Source of the DNA: a virus
DNA: 64,000 bases
Virus record (IMG/VR): IMGVR_UViG_3300022602_000037
Reading direction: 5' to 3' (one strand)
Part shown: piece after piece, positions 11,194 to 54,340 of the stretch
How positions within the stretch are numbered: the stretch's first letter is position 1
Layout of the letters: the number at the start of each line of letters is the position of its first letter
Notes under the pieces: generated by a model
Told to the model about the DNA's origin: nothing
Databases searched by the model: none
The model's input: only the letters and a program-made list of their open reading frames with translations
Made by a program: the position numbers and the translations under genes

Positions 11194-11221
11194 AATGACA
11201 ATCTAAAATAGCTAGGCTATT

Positions 11222-30619: not shown

Positions 30620-33289
30620 ATGTCTTATATAGACGCATGGTTTGACCGCGAGAACGATATCGTTCGAGTAGTTGAACGCAATAAAAAAGGTGATCGCGAA
30701 TTTCGCGATATACCAGTTAAGCACACATTCTATGTAAAAGACCCAAGAGGGAAATTTACGTCAATTTACGGTGATCCACTCACACGTATCGTTTGTAAAA
30801 ACACAAAAGAACTACGCAAAGAACAAGCCATTAACAGTGGCAAAGAAATGTTCGAATCAGACATTAATCCAATCTTTGTAACACTAAGCGAAAACTATCT
30901 AAATCAAGATGCTCCTAAACTAAATGTAGCATTTTTCGATATTGAGGTAGACTTTGATCCAGAGCGTGGTTATGCAAGTCCAGACGATGCGTTTATGCCA
31001 ATTACTGCGATTGCTGTTTACCTACAATGGTTGGAAACTATGGTATGTTTGGCTATTCCTCCTAAAAAACTAAAGATGGCAGAAGCTAAGGAAATGGTCA
31101 AAGACTTTCCTAATACATACTTGTTTGACAATGAAGCCGATTTACTAAACATGTTTTTGGATCTCATACAAGATGCAGATATATTAAGTGGCTGGAATTC
31201 AGAAGGCTTTGATATTCCTTACACTACAAATCGTGTTACAAAAGCATTATCAAAAGAAGATACTAGACGTTTCTGTTTATTTGATCAACTGCCAAAGAAA
31301 CGTGAATACGAAAAATATGGTCGTACTAGTACAACATATGATTATATTGGTCGTGTACACTTAGACTATCTCGAGCTGTATCGCAAATACACATACGAAG
31401 AACGTCACAGTTATCGACTGGATGCTATTGCCGAATATGAATTAGGCAAACGTAAAACACAATACGAAGGTACACTTGACCAGTTATACAACAACGACTT
31501 TAAGACATTTGTTGAATATAACATCAATGACTGCAAACTACTCGACGACCTAGATAAGAAGTTAAAGTTCATGGACTTGACCAATACGTTGGCACATGAA
31601 AACACAGTATTGCTACAGACCACAATGGGTGCTGTAGCTGTAACAGAACAAGCTATTATTAACGAAGCACATCGTAGAGGTTTCCAAGTTCCTAATCGTA
31701 CTAAGATGAGTGAACGTGAAGACAATGAAGGTGCTGCCGGTGCTTATGTTGCATATCCTAAAGAAGGTATTCAAGACTGGGTCGGGTCATTAGATATTAA
31801 TAGTCTATATCCTAGTGCAATTAGAGCACTTAACATGGGTCCAGAAACTATTGTTGGTCAGCTACGTCAAACAATGACTGAAGAATATATCGAACTACAA
31901 ATAGCCAAAGGCAAGAGCTTTGCGGCCGCTTGGGAAGGTAAGTTTGGTACTGATGAATACGAAGCAGTAATGGCACAAGAGATTGGCACAGACATTACTA
32001 TTGACTGGGAAAACGGGGATAGTGATGTACTAAGTGCGGCAGAAGTCTACAGACTTATATTTGAAAGCAATCAGCCTTGGATGCTTTCAAGTAATGGTAC
32101 TATCTTCACCTATGAAAAAGAAGGTATTATTCCAGGGCTACTTAAACGCTGGTATGCAGAACGTAAAGAGATGCAGGCCAAACTAAAGGAGGCTATAAAT
32201 GCTGGAAACAAAATTGAAGAAGAATATTGGGATAAGCGACAGCTGGTTAAGAAAATTAACCTTAACAGTTTGTATGGCGCTATTCTTAACAGCGGTTGTC
32301 GATTCTTTGATAAACGAATCGGACAATCAACAACGTTGGTCGGTCGCCAGATCGCAAAACATATGGCGAGTAAAGTAAATGAAATCATTGCCGGCGAATA
32401 TAATCACATAGGAAAGGCAGTTATATATGGTGACACTGATAGTTGTTATTTTAGTGCTTATCGCACTCTACAGAAGGACATTGAAGCCGGACGTATTCCC
32501 TGGACGAAAGAAACAGTCATCCAACTCTACGACCAAATAGGCGACGAAGTCAACGCTACATTCCCACAGTTTATGCTAGACTATTTCCACTGTCCAAAGA
32601 CACGTGGAGAAGTTATCAAAGCAGGTCGTGAAATTGTTGGATCAAAGAGCTTGTTCATTACCAAGAAACGTTATGCTGTTCTTTACTATGATAAAGAAGG
32701 CAAGCGTACAGATATAGATGGCAAGCCTGGTAAGATCAAGGCCATGGGCTTGGATCTAAAGCGTAGTGACACTCCAGAATTTATTCAAGACTTTTTAAGT
32801 GAAGTTCTTGAAATGGTTCTAATGGGTAAAGATGAACAGGATGTGCTAGATCATATCAGTGCGTTCCGTATCAAATTTAAAGCTCGTCCTGGATGGGAAA
32901 AAGGATCTCCCAAACGTGCTAATAACATTACCGACTATCAAGCTAAAGAAGCTAAAGCAGGTAAAGCTAATATGCCAGGACATGTACGTGCTAGTATTAA
33001 TTGGAACACTTTAAAACGTATGTATGGTGACAAGTATTCCATGGCTATTACAGACGGTGCTAAAGTTATTGTTTGTAAACTTAAACCTAATCCGTTAGGT
33101 TATACATCAGTCGCTTATCCAGTAGACGAACTGAGGTTACCGCAGTGGTTCAAAGATTTACCATTTGATCATGCTGAGATGGAAGCTACCATCATTGATA
33201 AGAAACTGGAGAACTTAATCGGTGTGCTTAAATGGGATATTACCAGCACCGAAGAAAAAAATACATTTAACAGTTTATTTGAGTTTTAA
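30620..33289 (+). CDS. Family B DNA polymerase (T4 gp43-like)
   Basis: Exo motifs FDIEVD, GWNSEGFDIPY, YNINDC. Pol motifs SLDINSLYPS, KINLNSLYG, YGDTDS, KKRYA. C-terminal clamp-binding-like NSLFEF. Confidence 0.96.
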   Translation: MSYIDAWFDRENDIVRVVERNKKGDREFRDIPVKHTFYVKDPRGKFTSIYGDPLTRIVCKNTKELRKEQAINSGKEMFESDINPIFVTLSENYLNQDAPKLNVAFFDIEVDFDPERGYASPDDAFMPITAIAVYLQWLETMVCLAIPPKKLKMAEAKEMVKDFPNTYLFDNEADLLNMFLDLIQDADILSGWNSEGFDIPYTTNRVTKALSKEDTRRFCLFDQLPKKREYEKYGRTSTTYDYIGRVHLDYLELYRKYTYEERHSYRLDAIAEYELGKRKTQYEGTLDQLYNNDFKTFVEYNINDCKLLDDLDKKLKFMDLTNTLAHENTVLLQTTMGAVAVTEQAIINEAHRRGFQVPNRTKMSEREDNEGAAGAYVAYPKEGIQDWVGSLDINSLYPSAIRALNMGPETIVGQLRQTMTEEYIELQIAKGKSFAAAWEGKFGTDEYEAVMAQEIGTDITIDWENGDSDVLSAAEVYRLIFESNQPWMLSSNGTIFTYEKEGIIPGLLKRWYAERKEMQAKLKEAINAGNKIEEEYWDKRQLVKKINLNSLYGAILNSGCRFFDKRIGQSTTLVGRQIAKHMASKVNEIIAGEYNHIGKAVIYGDTDSCYFSAYRTLQKDIEAGRIPWTKETVIQLYDQIGDEVNATFPQFMLDYFHCPKTRGEVIKAGREIVGSKSLFITKKRYAVLYYDKEGKRTDIDGKPGKIKAMGLDLKRSDTPEFIQDFLSEVLEMVLMGKDEQDVLDHISAFRIKFKARPGWEKGSPKRANNITDYQAKEAKAGKANMPGHVRASINWNTLKRMYGDKYSMAITDGAKVIVCKLKPNPLGYTSVAYPVDELRLPQWFKDLPFDHAEMEATIIDKKLENLIGVLKWDITSTEEKNTFNSLFEF

Positions 33290-33290
33290 T

Positions 33291-34064
33291 ATGAATATAA
33301 TAATTGCAGGTTACGGATTTGTAGGCAAAGCAGTTGCTAACTCAATAGGTTCAAAGAATATGTTGTATATTGTTGATCCTAAAGTCAGCGAACATAAAAT
33401 AAAAGATTTTCCCTATGCGGAAGCTATTATAATTTGTGTAGGTACTCCTAGTACACAATTAGGTGATTGTGACATTAGTCAAATTACCAGTGTGCTGGAT
33501 GAAACGCCGATACATTTACCAGTGTTAATTAAATCGACTGTGCCACCCGACTATTTAGAAAAGATTCTAAAACAATATCCTCAACATGATATTTGTTACA
33601 GTCCAGAATTTTTACGTGCTGTAAGTGCTAACGAAGATTTTGCCAATCAAAAATATATGGTCATTGGTGGAATAGATCCAGAAGGTATTTGGCAAACAAT
33701 GTTCCAGGAATCTTTACCTAACTGTAAAATATTCTTTAGCACTAGTATTGTAGAAGCTAGTATGATCAAATATGCTACCAATTGTTTTTTAAGCGTTAAG
33801 GTTGCATTTTTTAATCAGATATACGATTTGTGCGAAAAGAATGGTGCAGATTATGGACTAGTTAGACAAGTATTAACTCATGATACTCGTATAGGCAATA
33901 GCCATATGATGGTGCCGGGCCCGGATGGTAGTAGAGGATTTGGTGGTGCGTGTTTCCCCAAGGATACAAATGCATTTATGCACTATTCAGATCGAATGAA
34001 TCAGTCACACACTTTGGTCGAATCGGCCATAAAGTACAACAAAAAGGTTAGGAAAAATCCTTGA
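33291..34064 (+). CDS. UDP-glucose/GDP-mannose dehydrogenase family protein (lacks C-terminal domain)
   Basis: Start ATG 33291. GYGFVG, CVGTP, KSTVPP, SPEFLR, KYATNCF, GFGGACFPKD. Confidence 0.85.
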   Translation: MNIIIAGYGFVGKAVANSIGSKNMLYIVDPKVSEHKIKDFPYAEAIIICVGTPSTQLGDCDISQITSVLDETPIHLPVLIKSTVPPDYLEKILKQYPQHDICYSPEFLRAVSANEDFANQKYMVIGGIDPEGIWQTMFQESLPNCKIFFSTSIVEASMIKYATNCFLSVKVAFFNQIYDLCEKNGADYGLVRQVLTHDTRIGNSHMMVPGPDGSRGFGGACFPKDTNAFMHYSDRMNQSHTLVESAIKYNKKVRKNP

Positions 34065-34088
34065 CATTGTCTAAAAAACCTATATAAT
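34061..34088 (+). promoter_or_regulatory. Sigma70-type promoter
   Basis: TTGACA 34061-34066 and TATAAT 34083-34088 (16-nt spacer). Confidence 0.55.
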
Positions 34089-34108
34089 AACAAAACATGG
34101 AGAATCAT

Positions 34109-34840
34109 ATGAAAGACTTTTTACAAGACCTAGTAGCACATACACATAGTTTGGGCTTTTTGCCTTTGGTCAAGGTAACTGCATCAGACACTGAAACTAT
34201 TATCGAATCTATGGCAGAAGATCGTTCAGTTATCTTAAATGCCAAGACACATAATCCAGTTGAAGATTTGGAGGGTGTATTTGGTATGCCTAACTTAAAC
34301 AAACTAGACATCCATTTGAAATGTCCAGAATATAAAGAAAATGCCACCATTCGTGTAATTAAACAAGAACGTAACGATGAAACAATCGTCACAGGTTTAC
34401 ATTTTGCCAACAACACAGGTGACTTCGAAAACGACTATCGTTTTATGAGTGTAGAAATTATCAATGACAAACTTAAAACAGTCAAATTCAAAGGTGCTAA
34501 ATGGGATATTGAATTTGTTCCTACAATAGCATCTATTCAAAGATTAAAATTCCAGTCAGCGGCACATACAGAAGAGCCGACATTTCAAGTTACTACAGAC
34601 AACAGTAATTTAGTGTTTAGCTTTGGTGATGCTAGTACACATGCTGGATCGTTTACATTTGCAAGCGGTATTACTGGCAAACTAAAACAAGCATGGTCGT
34701 GGCCTGTTGCTCAAGTACAGAGTATTTTGAATCTTGCAGGCGATATTACAATGAAATTTTCTGATGCAGGCGCATTGAATATTACAGTAGATAGCGGTAT
34801 TGCAGTTTACGACTACATTTTACCAGCACAAAGCAAATAA
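34109..34840 (+). CDS. Probable sliding clamp (gp45/PCNA-like)
   Basis: About 243 aa, alternating beta/helix pattern, C-terminal YDYILPA, near the polymerase, clamp loader present. Start 34109 follows GGAG. Confidence 0.6.
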   Translation: MKDFLQDLVAHTHSLGFLPLVKVTASDTETIIESMAEDRSVILNAKTHNPVEDLEGVFGMPNLNKLDIHLKCPEYKENATIRVIKQERNDETIVTGLHFANNTGDFENDYRFMSVEIINDKLKTVKFKGAKWDIEFVPTIASIQRLKFQSAAHTEEPTFQVTTDNSNLVFSFGDASTHAGSFTFASGITGKLKQAWSWPVAQVQSILNLAGDITMKFSDAGALNITVDSGIAVYDYILPAQSK

Positions 34841-35019
34841 TGACAGAACTTCATAAACGTACAATAGTCAGAGCACTGACTTATAGAATAGTAGCATTGC
34901 TAATCACAGCTATATGGACTGGATTAAGCGATGCTGTAATCATACATAGCATCTTAACTGCTGTGCATTATGTTATGGAAAGAATCTGGTTAAAAATTAA
35001 GTGGGGTCGAATTGAATAA
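34840..35019 (+). CDS. Second DUF2061-like small membrane protein (not in ORF track)
   Basis: 59 aa MTELHKRTIVRALTYRIVALLITAIWTGLSDAVIIHSILTAVHYVMERIWLKIKWGRIE, TAATG-coupled. Confidence 0.65.
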   Translation: MTELHKRTIVRALTYRIVALLITAIWTGLSDAVIIHSILTAVHYVMERIWLKIKWGRIE

Positions 35020-36565
35020 GAACTTAACAGCAACTCAGAACGATTACGCATATTTCCTGCCAGCTACGTCAGGATTTTACAGTACATACATAGGTAAACA
35101 ACGTCACGGCAACTATGTAGATCCTGCTCGCATACCTGCTAGTTTTGGTCCTATGGGTATCGAAGCTATGAACTATCTAGATCCCAATGCGGCATTTTAT
35201 TATGACCATTGTTTGTATTCAGCGGGTCATGCGAATTTAGATTTGAATAAACACGATCCTAGCGAAGACATGTTCCGTAATCGCAACCGTGCTACTAGTT
35301 GGGTGTTAGGTGATTCAGGCGGATTCCAAATTGGTAAAGGCAAGTGGGAAGGTGACTGGAAAAATCCTAACTGCCCTAAGGCACAGAAGAAACGCGAACA
35401 AGTGCTTAAATGGATGGATGCACTTATGGACTATGGCATGTGTTTAGATATACCTGCTTGGGTTGCTCGTAGTCCCGAAGGTGCAAAAGCAACAGGCATT
35501 AGCACTTATGCAGAAGCAGTACAGGCTACATTTATTAACAATGATTATTTTATTAATAATCGCAATGGTAATTGCAAATTCTTAAATGTATTACAAGGTG
35601 AAAATCATACAGATGCCGAAGGATGGTATCAACATATGAAAAAGTATTGCGACCCTAAACAATATACTAATCATTTTAATGGTTGGGCGATGGGTGGACA
35701 GAATATGTGTGACATACATTTGACCTTAAAACGTCTAGTAGCGTTACGATTTGACGGCCTGTTAGAAAAAGGCGAACAAGACTGGATGCACTTCTTGGGT
35801 ACTAGTAAACTTGAATGGGCATTGATTTTAACAGATATACAACGTGCAGTTCGTAAGCATCATAATAGCGACTTTACTATTAGTTTTGACTGTGCTAGTC
35901 CGTTTTTGGCAACTGCTAATGGACAAATTTATGTACAAACAGAAATCAAAGATCGTGAAAAATGGTTGTATCGTATGCTACCTAGTTTAGACAATAAGAA
36001 ATATAAAAATGATAATCGATTATTCCAAGACGTAGTAGTACAAGACAAACATTTTGCTAATTTTGAAACAAGTCCTATCATGGACGGAGTCAAAGTTAAT
36101 GAAATCTGTATATATGGTCCAAACGATCTAAACAAAATTGGTAAGGTGGGCAAAACATCTTGGGATAGTTTTACCTATGCTATCATGATGGGACACAATG
36201 TATGGATGCATATCAATGCCGTACAAGAAGCAAATCGTCAGTATGATGCAGGATTGTGTCCTAGTATGCTTGTACAGGAAAAATTTGATAGACTTTATGC
36301 TAAGGATGTAATTGAAGCTATATTTGCAACAAGTGATCGAGGAACAGCAGACGCTATTGTAGACGAATTTAGTCGTTTTTGGATGGCTATTCCTGGTACT
36401 AGAGGATATACCGGTAAGAAAACTGTAAATCCAACTACAAAATATTTCGAATTGTTTGACGAAGTGGATACAGATAGTGTACAATCAGAAGATGAGCCAG
36501 ACTTCAGTGACGAAGTTTCCGATAAACTAGACGAATTAGAGGCTAGTGTACATGACATTACCTGA
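35012..36565 (+). CDS. dpdA: tRNA-guanine transglycosylase-like protein, DpdA-type (7-deazaguanine DNA insertion)
   Basis: LGDSGGFQIG, CLDIP, VLQG, GWAMGG, HFLG, SFDCASP correspond to TGT/DpdA barrel motifs. folE, queD-like and queE are nearby. Confidence 0.78.
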   Translation: MNKNLTATQNDYAYFLPATSGFYSTYIGKQRHGNYVDPARIPASFGPMGIEAMNYLDPNAAFYYDHCLYSAGHANLDLNKHDPSEDMFRNRNRATSWVLGDSGGFQIGKGKWEGDWKNPNCPKAQKKREQVLKWMDALMDYGMCLDIPAWVARSPEGAKATGISTYAEAVQATFINNDYFINNRNGNCKFLNVLQGENHTDAEGWYQHMKKYCDPKQYTNHFNGWAMGGQNMCDIHLTLKRLVALRFDGLLEKGEQDWMHFLGTSKLEWALILTDIQRAVRKHHNSDFTISFDCASPFLATANGQIYVQTEIKDREKWLYRMLPSLDNKKYKNDNRLFQDVVVQDKHFANFETSPIMDGVKVNEICIYGPNDLNKIGKVGKTSWDSFTYAIMMGHNVWMHINAVQEANRQYDAGLCPSMLVQEKFDRLYAKDVIEAIFATSDRGTADAIVDEFSRFWMAIPGTRGYTGKKTVNPTTKYFELFDEVDTDSVQSEDEPDFSDEVSDKLDELEASVHDIT

Positions 36566-36812
36566 TGAACGATTTAGAAGTATACAACGCACAGAAGAAT
36601 TCTTAACGGATTTAATGAATCCTCAAAAGACTCCACGTATTCCAAAAGAAATACGTGAGCAAGCTCGCTGGTGTTTGCGTCATTACCCTAGTTATCATAA
36701 TCTAAAAGAATTAGAACGTGCGGCACCTAATGTTGTACAAGAACGTATGGAAGATGTTAACCGTATGATAAAATATTGGGAAGAAGGAAAGAAATTTACA
36801 AATGAAAACTAG
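36552..36812 (+). CDS. BPSL0761-like small protein
   Basis: MTLPDERFRS...EFLTDL...PKEIREQARWCLRHYP pattern. Confidence 0.6.
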   Translation: MTLPDERFRSIQRTEEFLTDLMNPQKTPRIPKEIREQARWCLRHYPSYHNLKELERAAPNVVQERMEDVNRMIKYWEEGKKFTNEN

Positions 36813-37689
36813 TTTAGTTATAGGTATGGGCATTGGTAATTTATATGCTAAAGTGTTATCCGAATTAGGTCACGGTGTTGTCACAGTGGATAGCGACCCC
36901 GCCAAAGGAGCAGACTTCGAAACAGTCGATGCGGCCATTGTAGCATGCCATATGTTTGATACTGTACATATTTGTACTCCTAATTTTACACATTTTGATA
37001 TTGCTACTAAAGTTGCTAAATGTTCTAATATAGTGTTCATTGAAAAACCAGGTGTTAGTACTAGTAACATATGGTATACATTAGTTAAGACATTTCCAAA
37101 TACACGCTTTATGATGGTAAAGAACAATCAATGGCGCAGTAATTTTTCAGAAATCAAACAAATGGCAGATCGGGCAAAAACTATTAATCTTCGTTGGATT
37201 AATAAAGATCGAATACCTAGTCCAGGAAGTTGGTTTACTACAAAAAAATTAGCATTTGGTGGAGTTAGTAGAGATCTAATGCCGCATTTATTAAGTTGGA
37301 TGACTAAATTAGATCCAAACTATAAAAATTCAGAAAGATTACTGCAAACACATCATCAACGTTGGAAATTAGAAGATTTGCTTACTACAGACTATGGTAC
37401 TGTAAATCCTAATGGTACATATGATGTAGACGATTTTTATTATTTAGAATATAAAACCAATAATAAACGTTGGTTATTGACTGCCGATTGGCGTAGTGTA
37501 GGCGATGAAAGGATACATATTCAATTTATATACCCTGAAGATGATTACGATATTGTTCCTTTAGGTTTATGCCCAGAAGATGCATATAAAAGTATGATCG
37601 AAGACGCTATTGCAAACCTAAATAATAATGAGTTCTGGAATAATCAATTAGAACAAGATTTGTGGATACACGAACAAATATCAATATGA
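36802..37689 (+). CDS. Gfo/Idh/MocA-family NAD(P) oxidoreductase
   Basis: VIGMGIG, ICTPNFTH, FIEKP, GGVSRDLMPH motifs. Confidence 0.85.
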   Translation: MKTSLVIGMGIGNLYAKVLSELGHGVVTVDSDPAKGADFETVDAAIVACHMFDTVHICTPNFTHFDIATKVAKCSNIVFIEKPGVSTSNIWYTLVKTFPNTRFMMVKNNQWRSNFSEIKQMADRAKTINLRWINKDRIPSPGSWFTTKKLAFGGVSRDLMPHLLSWMTKLDPNYKNSERLLQTHHQRWKLEDLLTTDYGTVNPNGTYDVDDFYYLEYKTNNKRWLLTADWRSVGDERIHIQFIYPEDDYDIVPLGLCPEDAYKSMIEDAIANLNNNEFWNNQLEQDLWIHEQISI

Positions 37690-38591
37690 AAGTAAAATGT
37701 TTACAAACTCAAGGTCGAGGCTACTTTGAAGAAGTAGATTACGAAATTGGACCATGGGCACAAGATAGTATATATGTTCGTGCTGTTATGACAGGTGTTT
37801 GCCGTAGCGACATAGATATGATGATGGGAGAATTTGGACCATTACCCTTACACATGCAGGGCCATGAAGGTATTGGGCAGGTTATGACAGTAGGAGCAAA
37901 TTGTAACGATGTTCAAGTAGGTGATTATGTTGCTACACGTGGCGAACCTGCTTATGCTGATCAATATACTGTACGCAAAGATGAATATGTAAAGATTCCA
38001 GAAGCACATCCTCGCTATATTTTAGAACCAGTAGCTTGTGGTATCAATCTTATCAATCAGGCTAAAACATATTTCCAAGACCGTCAGGGTAGAAATGAAA
38101 ACAACAGAGTACTAATCCTGGGTAGCGGATTCTTAGCATGGGTGGCTTATCATACCTTACGTCTAAATGGTTATATCTTTCATGTAGATGTATTAGGGCA
38201 TAGTAACAAAGAATTATGGAATGATCGATTGTTGCCAAGTACTATCGAAAACTATGATATTGTTATCGATCTAAGTGGCAATTACGAATTAGGCACACAG
38301 ATTAACCTAAATAACAATGCGGTCATTATCGATGGCGTTGGTAAGGCAGTATCAAAACAAGAAGCACAGCAACAACTTTGGAAGGCTGTTACTACTATTA
38401 AACCGAGTCCACGTAATCCTGAGTTCATAGATTGTATGCGCATGGCCAAGTATTGGATTGAAAACGGTTATCTCGAGGTTGATCATTTCTGGACAAGATC
38501 ATATAATCGTACTACAGAATGGCAACAAGCGTTTGCGGACGGCGCTAATCGTCCGAGTGGTTACAGCAGAGGCTATATCAAATGGGATTAA
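37686..38591 (+). CDS. Zn-dependent (MDR) alcohol/sugar dehydrogenase
   Basis: Start ATG 37686. GVCRSD, GHEG, VQVGDYV, LEPVAC, ILGSGFLA. Confidence 0.85.
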   Translation: MKVKCLQTQGRGYFEEVDYEIGPWAQDSIYVRAVMTGVCRSDIDMMMGEFGPLPLHMQGHEGIGQVMTVGANCNDVQVGDYVATRGEPAYADQYTVRKDEYVKIPEAHPRYILEPVACGINLINQAKTYFQDRQGRNENNRVLILGSGFLAWVAYHTLRLNGYIFHVDVLGHSNKELWNDRLLPSTIENYDIVIDLSGNYELGTQINLNNNAVIIDGVGKAVSKQEAQQQLWKAVTTIKPSPRNPEFIDCMRMAKYWIENGYLEVDHFWTRSYNRTTEWQQAFADGANRPSGYSRGYIKWD

Positions 38592-39121
38592 ACACTGAAG
38601 AAAGACAAGGTGTTACGTACTTTACAGGCTACGAAGTTGAACATACAGTTTGTCATGGTATGTACACACTATTTGTAGTTGGTACACCGCCAGTTGAAGA
38701 TATACTCCGTATTGCCGATGATAGTCAGGCCCTTTTAGACGAGTCTAAACGCATTAAACATATCTACTTTGGTACTAGTCAAAGTTTCAATCCTTTAAGT
38801 ATCACACACGACCAATACAAACGCTGGGATGATGTTATTATTCCATGCCTAAAGAAAGACTACTGGGTTACATTAGACTTTGATGTTGCTCATGTAGAAG
38901 GAGTACTTGAATCTTGCTATTGTGAATATCCAAGATTCGTACCAATGATTAGCTGTAAGATTCCTTACATCAATCAACTTAACTATAACGCCACACTTAA
39001 ACTAGATGATCTTACTTGGGGTAAGACTAATCCGGGTGTGTGGACACATCAACTACATGATCTAATGAGTAAGGACAAGTATACTTATTGGGATCAATAT
39101 ACACAAGATACACCAACATGA
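38582..39121 (+). CDS. Hypothetical protein inside the modification cluster
   Basis: 179 aa, overlapping-coupled on both sides. Confidence 0.7.
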   Translation: MGLNTEERQGVTYFTGYEVEHTVCHGMYTLFVVGTPPVEDILRIADDSQALLDESKRIKHIYFGTSQSFNPLSITHDQYKRWDDVIIPCLKKDYWVTLDFDVAHVEGVLESCYCEYPRFVPMISCKIPYINQLNYNATLKLDDLTWGKTNPGVWTHQLHDLMSKDKYTYWDQYTQDTPT

Positions 39122-39507
39122 TTATTAGACAAGACGTTCGACCAAACAAGATGATCTGGGTCACCTTCCAAAAAGAAGGCATCCATGCCTATCCAGCGGC
39201 CGCAACTGATCCAAACTTAGCAACAGGAGATGAATATGATGTATCGTTTTTGGCTACTCCTCATCGCCATATATTCCATTTTCGCGTTTGGCTTTCAGTT
39301 ACCCACAACGACCGTGATGTCGAATTCATCCAGTTCAAACGCTGGTTGGAAAATTTATACAAAGACAGTATACTAAAACTAGATTATAAAAGTTGCGAGA
39401 TGATGTCAGATGATTTATATGACATGATTTCACAAAAGTATCCCAACCGTGAGGTTTGGATTGAGGTCTCCGAAGACGGAGAAAATGGTTCATTTATTAA
39501 ATATTAA
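39118..39507 (+). CDS. QueD-like T-fold enzyme (6-carboxytetrahydropterin synthase family)
   Basis: Start ATG 39118. EGIH, PHRHIFH, DRDVEF, SCEM, VSEDGENG pattern of phage QueD-like proteins. Context with folE, queE and dpdA. Confidence 0.65.
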   Translation: MIIRQDVRPNKMIWVTFQKEGIHAYPAAATDPNLATGDEYDVSFLATPHRHIFHFRVWLSVTHNDRDVEFIQFKRWLENLYKDSILKLDYKSCEMMSDDLYDMISQKYPNREVWIEVSEDGENGSFIKY

Positions 39508-39518
39508 GGAAAGCTATA

Positions 39519-39776
39519 ATGGCTAAGAACTACAAGGACATTAATTATTTAGAAACCCGTCCTGATATCGTTAAGATCTTTGATGATCTAGAGGCATTCC
39601 ATAATTGGTGCCGTTTGGAACTTTGTGAGTTCAACCCAGCCCATCTTTATAATAGAGAAAGCTGGCAGTGGCGTAATTTTGATAAGACCCGCCGTCCTAA
39701 GAAACCTGGAAATGGTGAGCGCAAACCTTACTTAGGCAAGAATCCTCGTCCTTACAATGAACGTATTTCTAATTGA
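39519..39776 (+). CDS. Hypothetical protein
   Basis: 85 aa, SD AAGGA. Confidence 0.65.
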   Translation: MAKNYKDINYLETRPDIVKIFDDLEAFHNWCRLELCEFNPAHLYNRESWQWRNFDKTRRPKKPGNGERKPYLGKNPRPYNERISN

Positions 39777-40848
39777 TCTAGAAGCAGTAGAAACAAGGTA
39801 CACTGGCGAATGGAAGCGCCATGTACCTGCTCTCTTACGAAAGGCAAGACACAATGTTCAAGTTATATCTGGGCCTACGGATATTCCTACAGCCACTACT
39901 CCTGGTGCTTTTCTTAATTTTGGCGGCACCAATATCTATAAGTCTAGCCAAGTGGAACAAATGGGGCGCCTATTTTGCTCCGGATCAGTACAGCCTGGCG
40001 ATCACTTCTTGTTTACCGATGCTTGGCATCCTGGCATCATAAACTTAAAGTACATGAGTGAACTACTAGGCATCCCAGTAACAACACACGGACTATGGCA
40101 TGCCGGTAGTTATGATCCCCAAGATTTCTTAGGACGACTAGTTGGTAACAAACCCTGGGTACGTCATGCTGAGAAAAGTTTTTTTGCGGCATTTGATCAC
40201 AATTACTTTGCTACCCAATTCCATATTGATATGTTCCATCATAATTTATTAAATGATGGCATGGTTGAAAATCCTTGGGAGGAAGAAGACAAAGCAGACA
40301 TGATTGGAGATAAGAAGTATGTTCGCACAGGTTGGCCCATGGAGTATATGGACGATACATTAACCATGTATAAGAATATGCCCAAGCGTGACTTAATTCT
40401 TTTTCCGCATCGCATAGCACCCGAGAAGCAAGTTGAGATTTTTAGAGACTTAGCTACACACTTACCGCAGTATGAATTTGTAGTATGTCAGGATCAACAG
40501 CTAACAAAAAATGAATATCATAATTTGTTAGGCGAAGCAAAGATGGTGTTTAGTGCTAACTTACAAGAAACTTTAGGAATTAGTTGCTACGAAGGTGCAG
40601 TAGTTGATGCTATTCCCATGGTCCCGGATCGGTTGAGCTATACAGAAATGTATTATGATATGTTCAAGTATGACAGTAAATGGACTGAAAGCTATGATGC
40701 TTATACAGTATATCGTCCAGACTTATGTCGTGCTATCATGACACATATGGATTATTATTCTACGAGAATACCCCACATACGCAAACAAGCAAAGGATTTA
40801 CATGACAACTTCTTCAGCGCTACCGGACTACTCGATAACATCAAGTGA
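39757..40848 (+). CDS. GT-B glycosyltransferase (GT4-like; resembles GTDC1/DUF3524 type)
   Basis: LWHAG, ILFPHRIAPEKQ, ETLGISCYEG (E-x7-E), PDRLSYTEM. Confidence 0.8.
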   Translation: MNVFLIDLEAVETRYTGEWKRHVPALLRKARHNVQVISGPTDIPTATTPGAFLNFGGTNIYKSSQVEQMGRLFCSGSVQPGDHFLFTDAWHPGIINLKYMSELLGIPVTTHGLWHAGSYDPQDFLGRLVGNKPWVRHAEKSFFAAFDHNYFATQFHIDMFHHNLLNDGMVENPWEEEDKADMIGDKKYVRTGWPMEYMDDTLTMYKNMPKRDLILFPHRIAPEKQVEIFRDLATHLPQYEFVVCQDQQLTKNEYHNLLGEAKMVFSANLQETLGISCYEGAVVDAIPMVPDRLSYTEMYYDMFKYDSKWTESYDAYTVYRPDLCRAIMTHMDYYSTRIPHIRKQAKDLHDNFFSATGLLDNIK

Positions 40849-41221
40849 TACTATAACTATAAGTACATTAGATACAAGTACATTTGGTAATATCACTGTT
40901 AGTAATAATACCGGATCAAGTTATTATCACGGTGGCGGTGCTAGCACAAGTACCGTGACTATTGGTGGTATAACTGGCTATACGCTTGGCTCAGGCCTAA
41001 CTAGTAGCGGTACCATTAGCGTTGCTCCATTGACTGTAGATCAAATAACCAGTTTTACATTACCGGTAGATTGGCAAGATCGTTTTCCAGATTGGGATAA
41101 AGTTAAAAAAATGTGTGAAGAATATCCCGGATTAAAAATAGCATTTGAAAAATTCCAAACAACTTACAAACTAGTAGTAGATCATTATGATACTCCAGAA
41201 GATAAAAGACCTAAGCCTTAA
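40802..41221 (+). CDS. Hypothetical protein, Ser/Thr-rich N-terminus
   Basis: 139 aa with helical C-terminal CEEYPGLKIAFEKF. Confidence 0.6.
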   Translation: MTTSSALPDYSITSSDTITISTLDTSTFGNITVSNNTGSSYYHGGGASTSTVTIGGITGYTLGSGLTSSGTISVAPLTVDQITSFTLPVDWQDRFPDWDKVKKMCEEYPGLKIAFEKFQTTYKLVVDHYDTPEDKRPKP

Positions 41222-41681
41222 TTGGTTAGAACAACATGATCGCAAACGTGTTATCATGGATCGTATATGCAACGAGCCATACCTTGAACGCTACTACATC
41301 TTTCTAAAAGATCGTAAACGTTTTCCCTTTAATATATTTTTACATAAATTCTTAAAAGGTGATCCAGACGATGTACATGATCATCCATGGCCATACGCTA
41401 CTTTAATTCTTAAAGGCGGCTACTATGAATGGATTCCGCAATTCAATGCCGACGGAACAAAATCGTGCGAAGTTAGGAAATGGCGAGGTCCGGGACACTT
41501 CCGTATTTGCAAACCAACAAGTTATCATCGTATTGAATTAAAAGAAGGTGTTACTGCATGGACATTGTTTATGCCAGGGCCACAACGCCGTGAATGGGGA
41601 TTCCTTGTTAATAACAAGTGGATCCACAATGATGAATATTTAACAGATAGAAAGAATGGCTTACTTCCCAACACCAATTAA
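41187..41681 (+). CDS. Cupin-fold protein
   Basis: LHKF..GDPDDVHDHPW, ILKGGYYE, YHRIEL, WTLF, REWGF metal-binding cupin motifs. Confidence 0.7.
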   Translation: MILQKIKDLSLNWLEQHDRKRVIMDRICNEPYLERYYIFLKDRKRFPFNIFLHKFLKGDPDDVHDHPWPYATLILKGGYYEWIPQFNADGTKSCEVRKWRGPGHFRICKPTSYHRIELKEGVTAWTLFMPGPQRREWGFLVNNKWIHNDEYLTDRKNGLLPNTN

Positions 41682-42051
41682 CACATCAACAGCTAATCAC
41701 GCTGTTCCTGTTCCGACTAATACTACCGTACCAAATGGTGGTTACATAACATCGACTGGAACTAATACTGTCTGGACTACTGGTACTAGTGTCGCCAATC
41801 CTTATGACGCGGTAATGGTTTTCAACCAAGGTGACCCTCCTCAATTAGACGTTAAAGGTCGAATGGTTATTAATGGACGCGATTTAGAAGAACGGTTGAA
41901 TACAATAGAAAAAGTCTTGAATATTCCAGAAAGAGATGTTATACTAGAACATAAACATCCAAAGCTCAAAGAACTGTACGATGCGTACATAAATGCTTTG
42001 GGCAAATATAGAACATTTGAAGCAATTAAAGGAGATGAAGATGCAAGTTGA
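41656..42051 (+). CDS. Hypothetical protein, Thr-rich N-terminus
   Basis: 131 aa with C-terminal KHPKLKELYDAY. Confidence 0.6.
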   Translation: MAYFPTPINTSTANHAVPVPTNTTVPNGGYITSTGTNTVWTTGTSVANPYDAVMVFNQGDPPQLDVKGRMVINGRDLEERLNTIEKVLNIPERDVILEHKHPKLKELYDAYINALGKYRTFEAIKGDEDAS

Positions 42052-42280
42052 ACAATTACACGAATCAGTTAAAGATACTTATAAAGAGATGGTTATTAAA
42101 GAACATGAAGGATTTCGCCTTGTGTTGAAAAAGCATGAAGTAATCAGTCCTAAAGGCCTATTTGCTCTCGATTTAGAACAACAACATTTGAAAGATGGCG
42201 AAATAGTTAACTCTTGTACTTACAATTTCTTTATGGATAAAGAAGAATTGCAAGTATTAGCCTCGGGTTTGACTGCATGA
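42041..42280 (+). CDS. Hypothetical protein
   Basis: Probable start ATG 42041 after GGAG. Confidence 0.55.
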   Translation: MQVEQLHESVKDTYKEMVIKEHEGFRLVLKKHEVISPKGLFALDLEQQHLKDGEIVNSCTYNFFMDKEELQVLASGLTA

Positions 42281-42777
42281 AGAAACTATATTATAGTTGG
42301 GCAGACATTGAAGGTGCTTGTTTAGATCTTGCTAGACAAATTAGACAAGATAACTGGCAACCCGATTATATTGTAGGGATTGGACGCGGTGGATTGATCC
42401 CTGCCACATTGTTAAGCCATTATATGGATGTACCTATGCAAACTTTAGATGTAAGTTTGCGTGATGGTGGTACTACTATCAGTAATGCCGGTATGGCAGA
42501 TGATGCTTACGAAGGTAAAAACATTCTTATTGTAGATGATATTAATGATCAAGGCAGTACCATTGCATGGATTAAAAAAGATTGGCGTAAAATGTCTTTA
42601 CCTAGTGCTATACGTTGGGATAATGATATCTGGGGTAAGACTGTTCGATTTGCTGTATTAACAGATAACTTTGCTAGTAATAGCGAATCGGATTATCATG
42701 TTTGGGAAGTTAATAAAATAGAAGAAGATTGCTGGTTGGTTTATCCTTGGGAGGAGTATTGGAAATGGCGTCGTTAA
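42277..42777 (+). CDS. Type I purine phosphoribosyltransferase (Gpt-like)
   Basis: IVGIGRGGLIPA, PRPP loop ILIVDDINDQGST, C-terminal WLVYPWE. Confidence 0.85.
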   Translation: MKKLYYSWADIEGACLDLARQIRQDNWQPDYIVGIGRGGLIPATLLSHYMDVPMQTLDVSLRDGGTTISNAGMADDAYEGKNILIVDDINDQGSTIAWIKKDWRKMSLPSAIRWDNDIWGKTVRFAVLTDNFASNSESDYHVWEVNKIEEDCWLVYPWEEYWKWRR

Positions 42778-42965
42778 CAGGAAGTATCGTTAAACTTATC
42801 TTTGGTATTGCATTAATATTAATTGCAGTTATATTTGGTCCAATAGTGGGTATTTGGAGTTTGAACACTTTGTTCCCAGTGTTAAATATTCCATTTACTT
42901 GGCAGACTTGGTTAGCCTTTAATTGTTTATTTGGTGGCACTATTGCTAGTAGGTTAAAAAAATGA
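42765..42965 (+). CDS. Small membrane protein
   Basis: Two hydrophobic segments, GGAGGAG SD. Confidence 0.6.
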   Translation: MASLTGSIVKLIFGIALILIAVIFGPIVGIWSLNTLFPVLNIPFTWQTWLAFNCLFGGTIASRLKK

Positions 42966-43141
42966 GTTTGACTGTACAAGAAATCAAAGAAAAAATCGAT
43001 ATGGTTAATAAAGATATTGAAAACCTTCGATCCGATGTAGGTAATGATCGTAAAATATCTATACTAGTCGACTATATCGATTACTTAAAAGACGAATTGA
43101 AAGAGGCTCAAATTGCAGAACGATCTCATAAAGGCACTTGA
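42962..43141 (+). CDS. Small coiled-coil protein (not in ORF track)
   Basis: 59 aa MSLTVQEIKEKIDMVNKDIENL..., ATGA-coupled, fills the gap. Confidence 0.55.
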   Translation: MSLTVQEIKEKIDMVNKDIENLRSDVGNDRKISILVDYIDYLKDELKEAQIAERSHKGT

Positions 43142-43487
43142 TGAAAAAAGAGCACCATGGACAGAAATTGAATACAGAACTAAAGAGTTCTGGGTCTTCC
43201 GAGATGCATTTCCGGTTACCCAAGGGCATTTGTTATTTGTGCCTACCTACGAAAAATCTGAAAACTTATACGAGTGCTACAAGGCCGCATACAAATTTGG
43301 CTATGAAGGAGTTGAAACAGAAAAATGGGATGGGTTCAACATCGGACAAAATGTTGGGCAGACTGCTGGCCAAACAGTAATGTATCCTCATGTACATATG
43401 ATTCCAAGACGAAAAGGAGATATGGAAGATCCACGCGGTGGAGTTCGGCATGTTATTCCGTCAAAAGGAAATTATGAAAGAACTTAA
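43113..43487 (+). CDS. HIT-family nucleotide hydrolase
   Basis: FPVTQGHLLFVP, GFNIGQNVGQTAGQTVMYPHVHMIPR. Confidence 0.88.
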   Translation: MQNDLIKALDEKRAPWTEIEYRTKEFWVFRDAFPVTQGHLLFVPTYEKSENLYECYKAAYKFGYEGVETEKWDGFNIGQNVGQTAGQTVMYPHVHMIPRRKGDMEDPRGGVRHVIPSKGNYERT

Positions 43488-43686
43488 TTCTGTTTGGGAA
43501 ATTAGATTAAACTGGTATAATCAAGACAAGTATTGGTGGAACCAAGTTTGTGCAGATGTAGTTGAAGTATTTGGCCTTCCTGGAGACAGATTCACTAGTC
43601 ATCCACATGAAGACTGTATGTTGTTTCGATTCAGATCAAAAAAAGATTATAATTTATGCAAAATTCTACTATCAGACAAAATTTAG
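43474..43686 (+). CDS. Hypothetical protein
   Basis: Probable start ATG 43474 after AAGGA. Confidence 0.55.
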   Translation: MKELNSVWEIRLNWYNQDKYWWNQVCADVVEVFGLPGDRFTSHPHEDCMLFRFRSKKDYNLCKILLSDKI

Positions 43687-43874
43687 ATTTTATATTTGTT
43701 ATATTGGCAAGCCTAGCATTTATAGGATTTGTCCTGTATATGGCTATACACTATCCACATGTAACAGTTCGATATGATTGTTCAATATCTGAGATTTCAC
43801 CCGATTATCCTATTCAAGTTAAAGAAGCATGTAGACAACTTCGAGCAGGAAATATCTTGCTATCGCCTAAATAA
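43656..43874 (+). CDS. Small membrane protein
   Basis: One TM helix, then YDC...ISPDYP...ACR. Confidence 0.55.
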   Translation: MQNSTIRQNLDFIFVILASLAFIGFVLYMAIHYPHVTVRYDCSISEISPDYPIQVKEACRQLRAGNILLSPK

Positions 43875-43885
43875 ACCTATATAAT
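43857..43885 (+). promoter_or_regulatory. Sigma70-type promoter for folE
   Basis: TTGCTA 43857-43862, 17 nt, TATAAT 43880-43885. A CTAAATA late-like core lies in the spacer. Confidence 0.55.
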
Positions 43886-43903
43886 ACTAACATAGGAGTA
43901 ATA

Positions 43904-44674
43904 ATGACTGAATCTAGAACATACGAACACGAAAATATTCTTGCTGGCGCAGAACAGCAAGACGATGATGACAAAAATTATAAAGAATGTAATCTAGCGG
44001 ATGTTATCCGCTTTCAAATGAAACGACGAGGCAAGCGTTTTTGGGCCGGTGACAACATTAGCGAGTTTGTCGACGAAGAACAAAAAGAAGTCTTAATCGA
44101 AGAAGCTACTAAGGCTTTTGAAAAAGTTTTAGATGCATTGCTGATTGATCGCGAAACAGATCCTAATAGCAAAGGCACTGCCAGACGTCTTGCTAAAATG
44201 TATTTTAATGAAATAATGAGTGGTAGATATGACCCAGCACCAGACGCAACAGCATTTCCAAATGATTCGGCGGACCGCTACGAAGGTATGTTGGTTGTCC
44301 GCAGTGAGCTTCGCAGTATGTGTAGCCATCATCACCAACCCGTTACTGGCGTTGCTTATATTGGTATTATTGCGGCTGAGAAACTTATCGGCTTATCAAA
44401 GTACACAAGAATCGCACAGTGGTGTGCCCGACGTGGTACTCTCCAGGAGGAACTTTGTAATGACATTGCTAGGGAAATCCAAAAAGCAACAGAAGCAAGA
44501 GATTTAGGTGTGTATATTCAAATGACACACGGATGCTGTGAGAATCGTGGTATTATGGCCAAGAGTAGTTTGACACAAACTACAGTACTCAAAGGTGCGT
44601 TCAAAGACGACCACGGTACAAAGAAAGAATTTTTTGATAACATTAAAATGCAACAGGAATACGCTTCCAAATGA
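43904..44674 (+). CDS. folE: GTP cyclohydrolase I
   Basis: TARRLAKMY, SMCSHHHQP, IGLSKYTR, LQEE, HGCCENRG, TTVLKGAF. Confidence 0.93.
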   Translation: MTESRTYEHENILAGAEQQDDDDKNYKECNLADVIRFQMKRRGKRFWAGDNISEFVDEEQKEVLIEEATKAFEKVLDALLIDRETDPNSKGTARRLAKMYFNEIMSGRYDPAPDATAFPNDSADRYEGMLVVRSELRSMCSHHHQPVTGVAYIGIIAAEKLIGLSKYTRIAQWCARRGTLQEELCNDIAREIQKATEARDLGVYIQMTHGCCENRGIMAKSSLTQTTVLKGAFKDDHGTKKEFFDNIKMQQEYASK

Positions 44675-44877
44675 TCAAAAAAGTATTTGCGAGAATACTA
44701 AGTGAAGCGTTATACTACTTAGGACATTGGATTAGTTTTCCAATGCACTACTGCGATTGGGCATGGTTGTACCCTACTTATAGTAGAATAATGTGCTGGA
44801 GCAGTGATGTCCAGGAGTGGGCGGGGAATGAATTACCTTGGAGGAAAATTGATGACGAAGACAGCACAGCAAATTAG
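44671..44877 (+). CDS. Hypothetical protein
   Basis: 68 aa, coupled to folE. Confidence 0.5.
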   Translation: MIKKVFARILSEALYYLGHWISFPMHYCDWAWLYPTYSRIMCWSSDVQEWAGNELPWRKIDDEDSTAN

Positions 44878-45085
44878 TGATGAACTAATTTATCGTATGA
44901 AAACTACAAGCCTAAATAAGTTTGAGATTAAAAGAGAAGTTGGCCCTAACTGGTTGCCTGACGGAACTATTCCGTTTGATATTCGTGCTACTAAAGGCAT
45001 TGCTATTTTTACAGTATGGGCAGAAAGTGTTCAAGACGCAGAAGATCAAGTATCACAATTTTTAGAAAAAGACGAAGATGAGTAA
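44852..45085 (+). CDS. Hypothetical protein
   Basis: Probable start ATG 44852 after GGAGG. Confidence 0.55.
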   Translation: MTKTAQQISDELIYRMKTTSLNKFEIKREVGPNWLPDGTIPFDIRATKGIAIFTVWAESVQDAEDQVSQFLEKDEDE

Positions 45086-45935
45086 AATTAAAATCGCAGA
45101 ATTATTTTATAGTATACAAGGCGAAGGACGGTACATGGGCGTTCCTAGCGTGTTCCTTAGAACTTTCGGCTGTAATTTCCGCTGTGCGGGCTTTGGTATG
45201 CCACGCGGTGAACTGAGTACAGAAGCTGAAGACATTGCTACAGTAGTACATCTATATAACAAATATGAAGAACTTCCTTTGGTTAGTACAGGGTGTGATA
45301 GTTATGCTAGCTGGCATCCTAGTTTTAAAGATCTTAGTCCAATGCTTACTACAGGTGCCATAGCAGATCGTATTATGGAAATTCTTCCATATCATCAATG
45401 GCAAGACGAACATTTAGTTATTACAGGCGGAGAACCGTTGTTAGGTTGGCAACGTGCTTATCCTGACTTGTTAGATCATCCTAATATGCAGTCATTGAAA
45501 GAATTGACATTTGAAACAAACGGAACTCAAACGTTAACCGATGATTTTCAAAGGTATTTGTTAAACTGGCAAAAAAGCGAAGGACAGTTATATGCCAGAG
45601 ATGTTACATTTAGTGTTAGTGCTAAGTTAAGTAATAGTGGCGAAAAACGTGAAGATGCTATTCGCCCAGATGTATTGCTACAATATCAAGATGTAGGTTA
45701 TACATATCTTAAATTTGTAGTAGCAACAGAAGATGATGCATATGAAGCTATCGAAGTTATGGACATTTACAGACTTGCAGGATTTACAGGCGCAGTTTAT
45801 CTAATGCCAGTCGGCGGTGTCGAAAGTGTCTATGCATTAAACAATCGTCGTGTAGCAGAATTGGCTATGAAGGCAGGCTTACGCTACAGTGATCGACTAC
45901 AAGTGCCTTTATTTAAAAACGAATGGGGTACTTAA
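45078..45935 (+). CDS. queE: 7-carboxy-7-deazaguanine synthase (radical SAM)
   Basis: ELFYSIQGEG, VFLRTFGCNFRC...CDS, VITGGEP, FETNGT, SVSAKL, YLKFVV, YSDRLQ. Confidence 0.92.
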   Translation: MSKIKIAELFYSIQGEGRYMGVPSVFLRTFGCNFRCAGFGMPRGELSTEAEDIATVVHLYNKYEELPLVSTGCDSYASWHPSFKDLSPMLTTGAIADRIMEILPYHQWQDEHLVITGGEPLLGWQRAYPDLLDHPNMQSLKELTFETNGTQTLTDDFQRYLLNWQKSEGQLYARDVTFSVSAKLSNSGEKREDAIRPDVLLQYQDVGYTYLKFVVATEDDAYEAIEVMDIYRLAGFTGAVYLMPVGGVESVYALNNRRVAELAMKAGLRYSDRLQVPLFKNEWGT

Positions 45936-53334: not shown

Positions 53335-53655
53335 GTGACTAACTCGGGAAGATATCTTCCCAAGGAGGTCGTTAAACATTGGCCGGAAGTATTTGAAGAC
53401 ATACGATTAAATGTGGTACCTATGGAGTACCTACATACCGTATTGGTTAATTTCAAAGACGGAAAAACTTGGGAAATTAAAATAACACATAAAGCCAAAC
53501 GGGAAGGATGGACTGCCTTTGAAAGAAGTTTGGCCGAGCTTTGCAGAAACTATGAAACAAAAATAAACGATATCGACTTTAAGCTAGATACACAAAAAGT
53601 TAAAAAAGATATTGAAAAAAGCACTCAAAAATTCCTTAAGAAAAAGAAGCTATAA
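53335..53655 (+). CDS. Hypothetical protein
   Basis: 106 aa, GTG start. Confidence 0.6.
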   Translation: MTNSGRYLPKEVVKHWPEVFEDIRLNVVPMEYLHTVLVNFKDGKTWEIKITHKAKREGWTAFERSLAELCRNYETKINDIDFKLDTQKVKKDIEKSTQKFLKKKKL

Positions 53656-53659
53656 ATAT

Positions 53660-54340
53660 ATGAATGTCCGACTACTTAGTTACAGCCAACCAACTACAGA
53701 ATTTGCTAGCATGGGAATTGATGACGCCCAAGAGCTCATTGCCTACTGTGCCAGAGTCAGTAACCCAAGCAATCAACTCAACACAGAAACTAGTGAACGG
53801 CTTATCAGGTACCTCATCCGACACCAGCATTGGAGCCCACTTGAAATGGTCTCAGCTTGCATCGAAATTACAACAACTCGAGACATTGCCCGTCAGATCC
53901 TTAGACACAGAAGTTTTAGTTTCCAAGAGTTTAGCCAACGCTATGCTGACCCGACAAAGGATCTCAACTTTATACTTAGAGATGCCAGAAGGCAGGACCT
54001 ACAGAATAGACAGAATAGTGTAGAACTAGATGTTCATAATAACGATGAAGATCGTTTCCTTGCTTATCAGTGGGAACGTATGCAAGAGCTAGTAATTAAA
54101 CAATCACGCGAAGCGTACGAATGGGCTATTCTAAAAGGTATTGCTAAAGAGCAAGCCCGTGCTGTATTACCGGAAGGTTTAATCGAAAGTCGGTTGTATA
54201 TGAATGGCACACTACGCAGTTGGATTCATTTTATCGAATTACGTAGTGCCAACGGCACACAAAAAGAACATCAGGAAGTTGCTATTGCTTGTGCAAAAGT
54301 TATTTCTGAAATTTTTCCTTTAGCAAAAGATCTTACTTAA
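53660..54340 (+). CDS. thyX: FAD-dependent thymidylate synthase
   Basis: ARVS, HWSPLE, RQILRHRSFSFQEFSQRY (ThyX motif), EQARAVLP, LRSWIHFIELR. Confidence 0.93.
   Translation: MNVRLLSYSQPTTEFASMGIDDAQELIAYCARVSNPSNQLNTETSERLIRYLIRHQHWSPLEMVSACIEITTTRDIARQILRHRSFSFQEFSQRYADPTKDLNFILRDARRQDLQNRQNSVELDVHNNDEDRFLAYQWERMQELVIKQSREAYEWAILKGIAKEQARAVLPEGLIESRLYMNGTLRSWIHFIELRSANGTQKEHQEVAIACAKVISEIFPLAKDLT

Follow-up and report, generated by a model that had tools for sequence, protein, structure and literature searches.

A jumbo phage gene cluster linking DpdL to a GT4-fold glycosyltransferase, a candidate system for sugar-bearing 7-deazaguanine in DNA

The stretch analyzed here (64,000 nucleotides of the IMG/VR virus record IMGVR_UViG_3300022602_000037, one strand, henceforth called the window) carries a cluster of genes for a DpdA-type transglycosylase, a DpdL-type protein, a glycosyltransferase (GT) and enzymes of 7-deazaguanine synthesis (Table 1), which together may place a sugar-bearing 7-deazaguanine derivative in the phage DNA. 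A first-pass annotation, made from the letters of the sequence, had described the named genes as a tight co-directional run behind the DNA polymerase, and this was confirmed by open reading frames (ORFs) and family searches: all of them are present and intact on the + strand, and the twelve ORFs between 35012 and 42777 (+) overlap or almost touch at their ends. Searches against Pfam and NCBIfam backed the polymerase, the nucleoside diphosphate (NDP)-sugar dehydrogenase-family gene, the Gfo/Idh/MocA oxidoreductase, the N-terminal domain of the Zn-dependent dehydrogenase, the phosphoribosyltransferase (PRTase), the HIT-family protein, FolE and the QueE-like protein. For three key genes, Pfam, NCBIfam and the PDB sequences alike gave no match. 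The polymerase has 50% identity to its counterpart in Pseudomonas phage PA5oct, with which the window phage also has the gene order from polymerase to RNase H in common. The DNA of the window belongs to an uncultured aquatic jumbo phage; a megablast of phage records with the 13-kb region gave no match, and close homologues of two key proteins of the cluster (71–94% identity) were found by the thousands in metagenomes, on aquatic contigs of up to ~379 kb.

Table 1. Genes of the cluster and its flank, with positions in the window and the basis of each assignment (aa, amino acids)
Feature	Position	Strand	Basis and remarks
Family B DNA polymerase	30620..33289	+	PF00136 1.2e-37, PF03104 1.8e-20; cluster begins directly behind
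NDP-sugar dehydrogenase-family protein, accessory	33291..34064	+	TIGR03026 150 bits, profile positions 73–297 of 413
Clamp-like protein	34097..34840	+	phrog_12062 at 5e-37, for which no function is on record
Divergent DpdA-type guanine transglycosylase, TGT fold, 517 aa	35012..36565	+	AlphaFold2 model, motifs, hhalign
Small BPSL0761-family protein, 88 aa	36546..36812	+	NF041728 at 59 bits (cut-off 35)
Gfo/Idh/MocA oxidoreductase, accessory	36802..37689	+	PF01408 1.2e-5
Zn-dependent medium-chain dehydrogenase, accessory	37662..38591	+	PF08240 2.6e-10; many Zn-dependent alcohol dehydrogenase PDB chains match
179-aa protein	38582..39121	+	No Pfam, NCBIfam or PDB match; two allelic types
DpdL, QueD-paralogous T-fold protein, predicted CDG decarboxylase	39088..39507	+	Signature and homology
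85-aa basic protein between DpdL and GT, lineage-specific	39519..39776	+	No family match; in 32 relatives
GT-B/GT4-fold glycosyltransferase, neighbour of DpdL	39757..40848	+	AlphaFold2 model, donor-site motifs
139-aa protein	40802..41221	+	No family match; in 17 relatives
164-aa protein, possible cupin (HDHPW + H114 metal-type motif)	41187..41681	+	cupin_2 chains only at E 0.9–1.5
Two small ORFs, 131 aa and 95 aa	41656..42280	+	No family match
6-oxopurine-type PRTase	42277..42777	+	PF00156 1.1e-18; best NCBIfam xanthine PRTase PRK09177 6.6e-13, then HGPRT
HIT-family nucleotide hydrolase or transferase, accessory	43113..43487	+	PF01230 6.6e-10; HinT-like 3.9e-12
GTP cyclohydrolase I (FolE)	43904..44674	+	PF01227 3.3e-38 (131 bits), NF006824 7.9e-40
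QueE-type radical SAM enzyme (CDG synthase)	45078..45935	+	Weak matches to five QueE NCBIfam models, E 2e-14 to 5e-10, all below cut-offs

The 517-aa protein had no match in Pfam or NCBIfam (PF01702 included), and a profile built from 56 sequences retrieved no tRNA-guanine transglycosylase (TGT) from the PDB sequences. For this protein as well as for the GT, DpdL and the 179-aa protein, sequence and profile HMM searches of PDB sequences gave nothing meaningful, and fold searches alone worked. Scanned in full, a set of 1.8 billion cluster representatives yielded 946 relatives. With the AlphaFold2 model of the protein (predicted local distance difference test, pLDDT, of 91) as the Foldseek query, the best 50 matches were all TGTs (E ~3e-6), and the model aligned with the T. 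maritima, Z. mobilis, human, and archaeal TGTs at Z 17–18 and a root-mean-square deviation (rmsd) of 4.3–4.8 Å over 295–318 residues. D101 (in the motif D101-S-G-G-F-Q), D146 (LDIP), H260 and D293 (SFDxxSP) were invariant in 56 homologues with 26–81% identity to the window protein; D101, D146 and D293 are presumably the counterparts of D102, D156 and D280 of the Z. mobilis TGT. In hhalign, the family was aligned to the DpdA of phage ACP17 with 96% probability and all four motifs in register. Judged by modelled fold, motifs (DSGGFQ among them) and the hhalign result, the protein, which the first-pass annotation had already read as a TGT/DpdA-like transglycosylase, is a divergent enzyme of the DpdA type and falls into none of the subfamilies that have been named. 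DNA rather than tRNA as its putative substrate is suggested only indirectly, by the restriction resistance of PA5oct DNA (see below) and by the position of the gene beside the polymerase and the clamp-like gene. Among the viral models of BFVD, the model matched a TGT-like protein of Vibrio phage nt-1 (1.8e-9) and a 259-aa protein of phage phiST, taken to be its DpdA3 (1.6e-3); nt-1 has been reported to encode a DNA-acting DpdA2 (PMC10516641).

The first-pass annotation had placed a complete FolE-QueD-QueE set in the cluster, of which FolE and a QueE-like protein were found, and the T-fold gene read as QueD turned out to encode DpdL. Its residues L55-ATP-HRHIF fit the signature LxxxHRHxF, which in DpdL replaces the CxxxHGH of QueD; for DpdL, decarboxylation of 7-carboxy-7-deazaguanine (CDG) is predicted (Cui, Hutinet et al., NAR 2023, PMC10516641). 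L55, H59, R60, H61, and F63 were invariant in 25 homologues. In tblastn, the window DpdL was 54% identical to the DpdL of ACP17 (4e-36) and 33% identical to that of phiST (2e-8), and hhalign gave 99.1% (E 1e-18) against phiST gp040 as opposed to only 7.9% against the canonical QueD of ACP17. Searches with three phage QueDs found no canonical QueD in the window; in two close relatives, a canonical QueD lies ~50 kb from the cluster. No QueC scored above the cut-off in the contigs of five relatives, and the pathway would therefore branch at CDG. The QueE-like protein, the homologue of which in PA5oct carries the annotation CDG synthase, has the conserved SxQGEG and carries C32-x3-C36 followed by C73, an insertion of ~36 residues separating the third Cys from the first two, which is an unusual spacing for a QueE motif; all three Cys were invariant in 30 homologues, those of PA5oct and Xanthomonas phage X1 included. 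The PRTase was closest to xanthine-guanine and hypoxanthine-guanine PRTases (XGPRT/HGPRT), and PA5oct encodes a homologue of it.

The 363-aa GT was modelled by AlphaFold2 with a pLDDT of 90.9, and the model aligned along residues 1–363 with retaining enzymes of glycosyltransferase family 4 (GT4) at Z 21–25 and an rmsd of 3.2–3.6 Å (~300–316 residues aligned). The best fold matches were sucrose-phosphate synthase (Z 25.0), BshA (24.1), MshA (23.9), and GlgM (23.7), with PimA also aligned. E271-x7-E279 (EX7E), R219, and K224 were invariant in 34 sequences, and we take them to be GT4 donor-site residues, of which the basic ones would bind the donor diphosphate. On model and motifs, the protein is a GT4-fold glycosyltransferase with intact donor-site motifs, so that its initial reading as a GT-B enzyme stands. 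The Pfam models Glycos_transf_1 and Glyco_transf_4 matched neither the protein at E ≤ 0.01 nor its relatives at E ≤ 10; in one Atlas cluster, PF00534 was found on 29% of the members. The narrower assignment to the GTDC1/DUF3524 type, which the first-pass annotation had made by eye, found no support: QTMAN_N (formerly DUF3524, PF12038) had no match on the protein at E ≤ 0.01 and none in the contigs of five relatives at E ≤ 10, in a search of low sensitivity because the generic GT model fails, too. T4 AGT, BGT, and any QTMAN structure were not among the fold matches listed. Tetrahydrobiopterin (BH4) glucosyltransferases were among the structural matches (E 1e-6), ranked beneath many other GT4s.

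Co-occurrence was determined in 80 IMG/VR loci, 50,697 phage records and ten contigs binned into metagenome-assembled genomes (MAGs); 73 relatives were used for the comparison of redox genes. The core set of polymerase, clamp-like protein, DpdA, DpdL, GT, PRTase, FolE, and QueE recurs in the 80 IMG/VR loci wherever the contig extends far enough. Of the phage records, 22 contained the GT, 28 DpdL, and 17 both, compared to 0.012 expected (Fisher p = 2e-54, calculated on records that are not independent). These 17 records represent five lineages (Sinorhizobium phage Phosso, the PA5oct group, ACP17, Xanthomonas X1/BUDD, and Burkholderia BCSR5), and in none of them are GT and DpdL more than 3 kb apart. 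In each of the ten MAG-binned loci, the gene immediately upstream of the GT is DpdL, and this holds even at a GT identity of only 40–41%. Moreover, the GT-DpdL pair accompanies three TGT-like clades that phmmer does not detect from one another. DpdL also occurs without the GT, namely in phiST and six other lineages; GT-like matches without DpdL are distant (66% query coverage) and adjoin GlmS-like and BshB-like genes. In Phosso, the DpdL-GT pair, FolE and QueE lie behind polymerase and clamp, and the DpdA-like gene lies ~170 kb off beside primase and a DnaB-like helicase; linkage of the transglycosylase to the genes for base synthesis is therefore not a requirement. The expected association of the GT with deazaguanine genes thus holds in relatives and across unrelated phage lineages. 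The ten MAG-binned relatives come from marine and freshwater samples and were found in MAGs assigned to unrelated taxa, and the scan gave phage-like contigs only; most likely, these contigs derive from phages and were placed in cellular MAGs in error. The MAGs with module-bearing contigs are named as Crocinitomicaceae, Fischerella, Neomarinimicrobiota (335 kb), Legionellales, Methanobacteriota, Nitrosarchaeum, and Deltaproteobacteria.

The three redox enzymes, which the first-pass annotation had given the core role of making the sugar, are accessory and not core. The MocA oxidoreductase and the Zn-dependent dehydrogenase always occur together, in 25 of the 73 relatives, and the pair is absent from PA5oct, ACP17, and Phosso, all three of which retain the GT. 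The PDB matches of the MocA oxidoreductase were weak (inositol 2-dehydrogenase and the glycoside 3-oxidase DgpA). The dehydrogenase-family gene behind the polymerase, present in 25/73 relatives, belongs to the family originally named (TIGR03026) and keeps the N-terminal and central domains with the GYGFVG Rossmann motif and the GGACFPKD catalytic-Cys motif; it lacks the C-terminal uridine diphosphate (UDP)-binding domain, the protein ending soon after the catalytic-Cys motif. The 179-aa protein gave no Pfam match over 26 members either, and a homologue lies directly upstream of dpdA in ACP17. Its identity to the window copy is 51–89% in loci with the MocA and Zn-dependent dehydrogenase pair and 33–49% in those without, with no overlap, and DpdA identity is the same in both kinds of loci and the flanking genes show no such split. 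Since the split of the 179-aa protein tracks the redox pair, the three genes behave like a single exchangeable cassette. Relaxase look-alikes retrieved from the Atlas for the 179-aa protein (score 0.92, with only 143 shared features) were treated as chance. In relative L097 (positions 8001–11431; DpdA 54% identical), a full-length three-domain NDP-sugar dehydrogenase overlaps the GT stop codon, and a 201-aa piece of a DegT/DnrJ/EryC1 aminotransferase follows two genes further on, i.e., a different sugar-tailoring set in the same position. Such differing sugar genes beside the same GT would agree with a sugar donor that is not the same in every lineage.

Among the closest known systems is that of Cellulophaga phage phiST (FolE, QueD, QueE, DpdL, DpdA3; PMC10516641), which resembles that of the window in the missing QueC, the branch at CDG, the LxxxHRHxF DpdL, the TGT-related transglycosylase, and the adjacent replication genes. 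It differs in having no GT4 at the locus inspected and a DpdA3 of only 259 aa, whereas the window DpdA has 517 aa and belongs to another clade; the window furthermore adds the GT4 fixed by DpdL, the PRTase, and the sugar-type redox genes. The locus of PA5oct (Wroclawvirus; EST35_0311-0325) has polymerase, clamp-like protein, DpdA-like protein (32%), GT (43%), DpdL (56%), PRTase (36%), QueE (31%), and RNase H in the same order, with GT, DpdL, and DpdA all annotated as hypothetical, but is without the dehydrogenase, the MocA and Zn-dependent dehydrogenase pair, the 179-aa gene, the cupin-like and HIT genes, and a local FolE. PA5oct DNA, which is reported to carry a modified G, is resistant to restriction at G-containing sites and is attacked by nucleases that sense modified G (PMC12191111). 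The eight phage 7-deazaguanines of the 2023 study are all sugar-free, and glycosylation is never mentioned there (PMC10516641). Expression of dpdA and dpdL of phiST or ACP17 in E. coli gave no dDG, and the authors suggest that other enzymes are needed (PMC10516641). In the literature, we found no paper on a glycosylated deazaguanine, or any glycosylated purine, in DNA.

On balance, we favour the reading that the system replaces guanine in DNA with a 7-deazaguanine derivative that is most likely sugar-bearing and is tailored in a lineage-specific way, with the chemistry inferred. In brief, FolE, QueD (from a gene outside the cluster), and QueE would convert GTP to CDG as in the established pathway, and DpdL would act on CDG, for which the literature predicts decarboxylation to 7-deazaguanine. 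The divergent TGT-fold DpdA, the catalytic Asp motifs of which are intact, would exchange guanine in DNA for the deazaguanine. The GT4, always encoded beside DpdL, would move a sugar from an NDP-sugar to the base either before or after insertion. In the window lineage, the dehydrogenase lacking the UDP domain, the MocA and Zn-dependent dehydrogenases, and possibly the cupin-like and HIT proteins probably alter the sugar, and the purine PRTase probably salvages the guanine freed by base exchange. A more specific version of this proposal, quite possible in our view if slightly doubtful, is that of a first sugar-bearing purine in DNA: DpdL and GT4 would make the glycosylated base, DpdA would insert it, and lineage cassettes would rework its sugar. 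This would amount to a family of differing glyco-deazaguanines comparable to the diversity of sugars on hydroxymethylcytosine (hmC).

Several points weigh against a sugar-bearing base. For every GT-bearing phage, the sugar is a prediction, and the QueD and QueC status of the window phage is read from incomplete contigs of its relatives. The Cys3His Zn site of TGTs is not conserved in the window DpdA family, where only C366 (71%) and H395 (84%) are partly kept; the 517-aa protein is therefore a divergent member of the TGT superfamily. The GT is acidic (isoelectric point 5.8), and its nearest structures act on small molecules and not on DNA. Unsubstituted 7-deazaguanine offers no obvious hydroxyl, and if it is the acceptor, the sugar would be N- or C-linked, or else DpdL acts otherwise. 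Lastly, phiST encodes DpdL, has no GT at the locus inspected, and holds plain dDG in its DNA (PMC10516641); DpdL does not, therefore, need the GT.

The small-molecule acceptors, the missing hydroxyl and the phiST precedent also speak for a simpler explanation, in which the deazaguanine of the DNA bears no sugar (dDG or dCDG, the situation of phiST or STSV-2) and the GT4 serves the detoxification or storage of a free intermediate, or acts on a protein or a host glycan. We regard this as unlikely, though it is the strongest of the alternatives, given that the GT overlaps or abuts dpdL in every GT lineage and across three DpdA clades, and that it is nearly absent from phages without DpdL. Such a distribution is a poor fit to an unrelated role of the GT, although it is compatible with one on a free intermediate.

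A nucleotide-level route is improbable. It would follow the logic of tubercidin, with CDG, a PRTase and a decarboxylase: the PRTase would join CDG or deazaguanine to phosphoribosyl pyrophosphate (PRPP), the product would be taken to a dNTP and incorporated by the polymerase, and the TGT-like protein would play a minor or different part. It draws on the 6-oxopurine type of the PRTase, on its retention in PA5oct and most relatives, and on the location of the cluster between polymerase and RNase H. Yet no PRTase was detected in the vicinity of the DpdA, DpdL, and GT genes that ACP17, X1, BCSR5, and Phosso retain, the catalytic residues of the DpdA-like protein are invariant across 56 diverse homologues, no dedicated analogue kinase or reductase was seen in the cluster, and guanine salvage accounts for the PRTase more simply.

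That there is no DNA modification at all, with the TGT-like enzyme acting on tRNA or with FolE, the T-fold protein and the GT making a pterin glycoside, is very improbable: the fold matches of the 517-aa protein are tRNA enzymes and BH4 glucosyltransferases appear among the GT structural matches, but the latter rank under many other GT4s, the window contains no tRNA gene, QueE commits the pathway to deazapurines, the DNA of PA5oct is itself restriction-resistant at G sites (PMC12191111), and one of the closest structural matches from viruses is a TGT-like protein of nt-1, a phage with a reported DNA-acting DpdA2 (PMC10516641).

For the favoured reading of a sugar-bearing deazaguanine in DNA, partial parallels exist in other systems. 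In huimycin and dapiramicin biosynthesis, the substrate of the GT is a base that derives from 7-deazaguanine and is produced by FolE, QueD, and QueE; HuiG glycosylates the free 7-deazapurine with UDP-N-acetylglucosamine (UDP-GlcNAc) (bioRxiv 10.64898/2026.04.15.718813). Tubercidin is made from CDG without QueC via a PRTase and decarboxylation. These are, in contrast to the window, secondary-metabolite clusters of actinomycetes with free products and no DpdA/TGT, and HuiG is likened to the window GT by function alone. QTMAN is an enzyme of the GT4 class. Mannosyl- and galactosyl-queuosine of animal tRNA (QTMAN/GTDC1 and QTGAL) likewise have a sugar on a 7-deazaguanine in nucleic acid; there, however, the nucleic acid is RNA, the sugar is on the cyclopentenediol of queuosine, which the window pathway cannot make, and QTMAN_N is undetected in the window GT. 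Glucosyl-hmC of the T-even phages and other glycosylated phage pyrimidines share with the window a phage GT-B enzyme acting on a non-canonical base, anti-restriction, and a lineage-variable sugar. They differ in being pyrimidines with a hydroxymethyl or hydroxyl handle, and T4 AGT/BGT are, as stated, not among the listed fold matches of the window GT.

If true, a glycosylated deazaguanine would represent a DNA base of a new class, and would help to explain the failure of dpdA and dpdL in E. coli, the nature of the modified G in the therapy candidate PA5oct, and the target of the END nucleases. As the module is abundant in metagenomes, the base may be common in nature, and it would affect how such DNA can be sequenced, digested with restriction enzymes, or cleaved by Cas. 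The cultured carriers PA5oct, ACP17, Xanthomonas X1, and Phosso make the prediction directly testable.

Among the remaining genes, the clamp-like gene is kept beside polymerase and DpdA, and its label, given likewise in the first-pass annotation, derives solely from a 32%-identical Phosso gene annotated as sliding clamp beta. Just upstream of it (34061–34088) lies a sigma-70-like promoter, a 12/12 match to the consensus (TTGACA, 16 nt, TATAAT), the sole perfect match in 18 kb. The 164-aa protein, labelled a cupin in the first-pass annotation, carries a metal-type motif, with H53, H64, H66, and H114 invariant, and its cupin_2 match reaches E ~1 only. The 88-aa ORF (36546–36812) overlaps the end of dpdA and belongs to BPSL0761, a family of small bacterial proteins of unknown function. 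Away from the cluster, the window encodes a full-length DnaJ (J domain and C-terminal domain) near a 759-aa ClpB/Hsp104-type double-AAA chaperone (15714–19342), as well as the flavin-dependent thymidylate synthase ThyX (53612–54340; PF02511, 1.1e-44), and thymidine is therefore probably made by the ordinary route.

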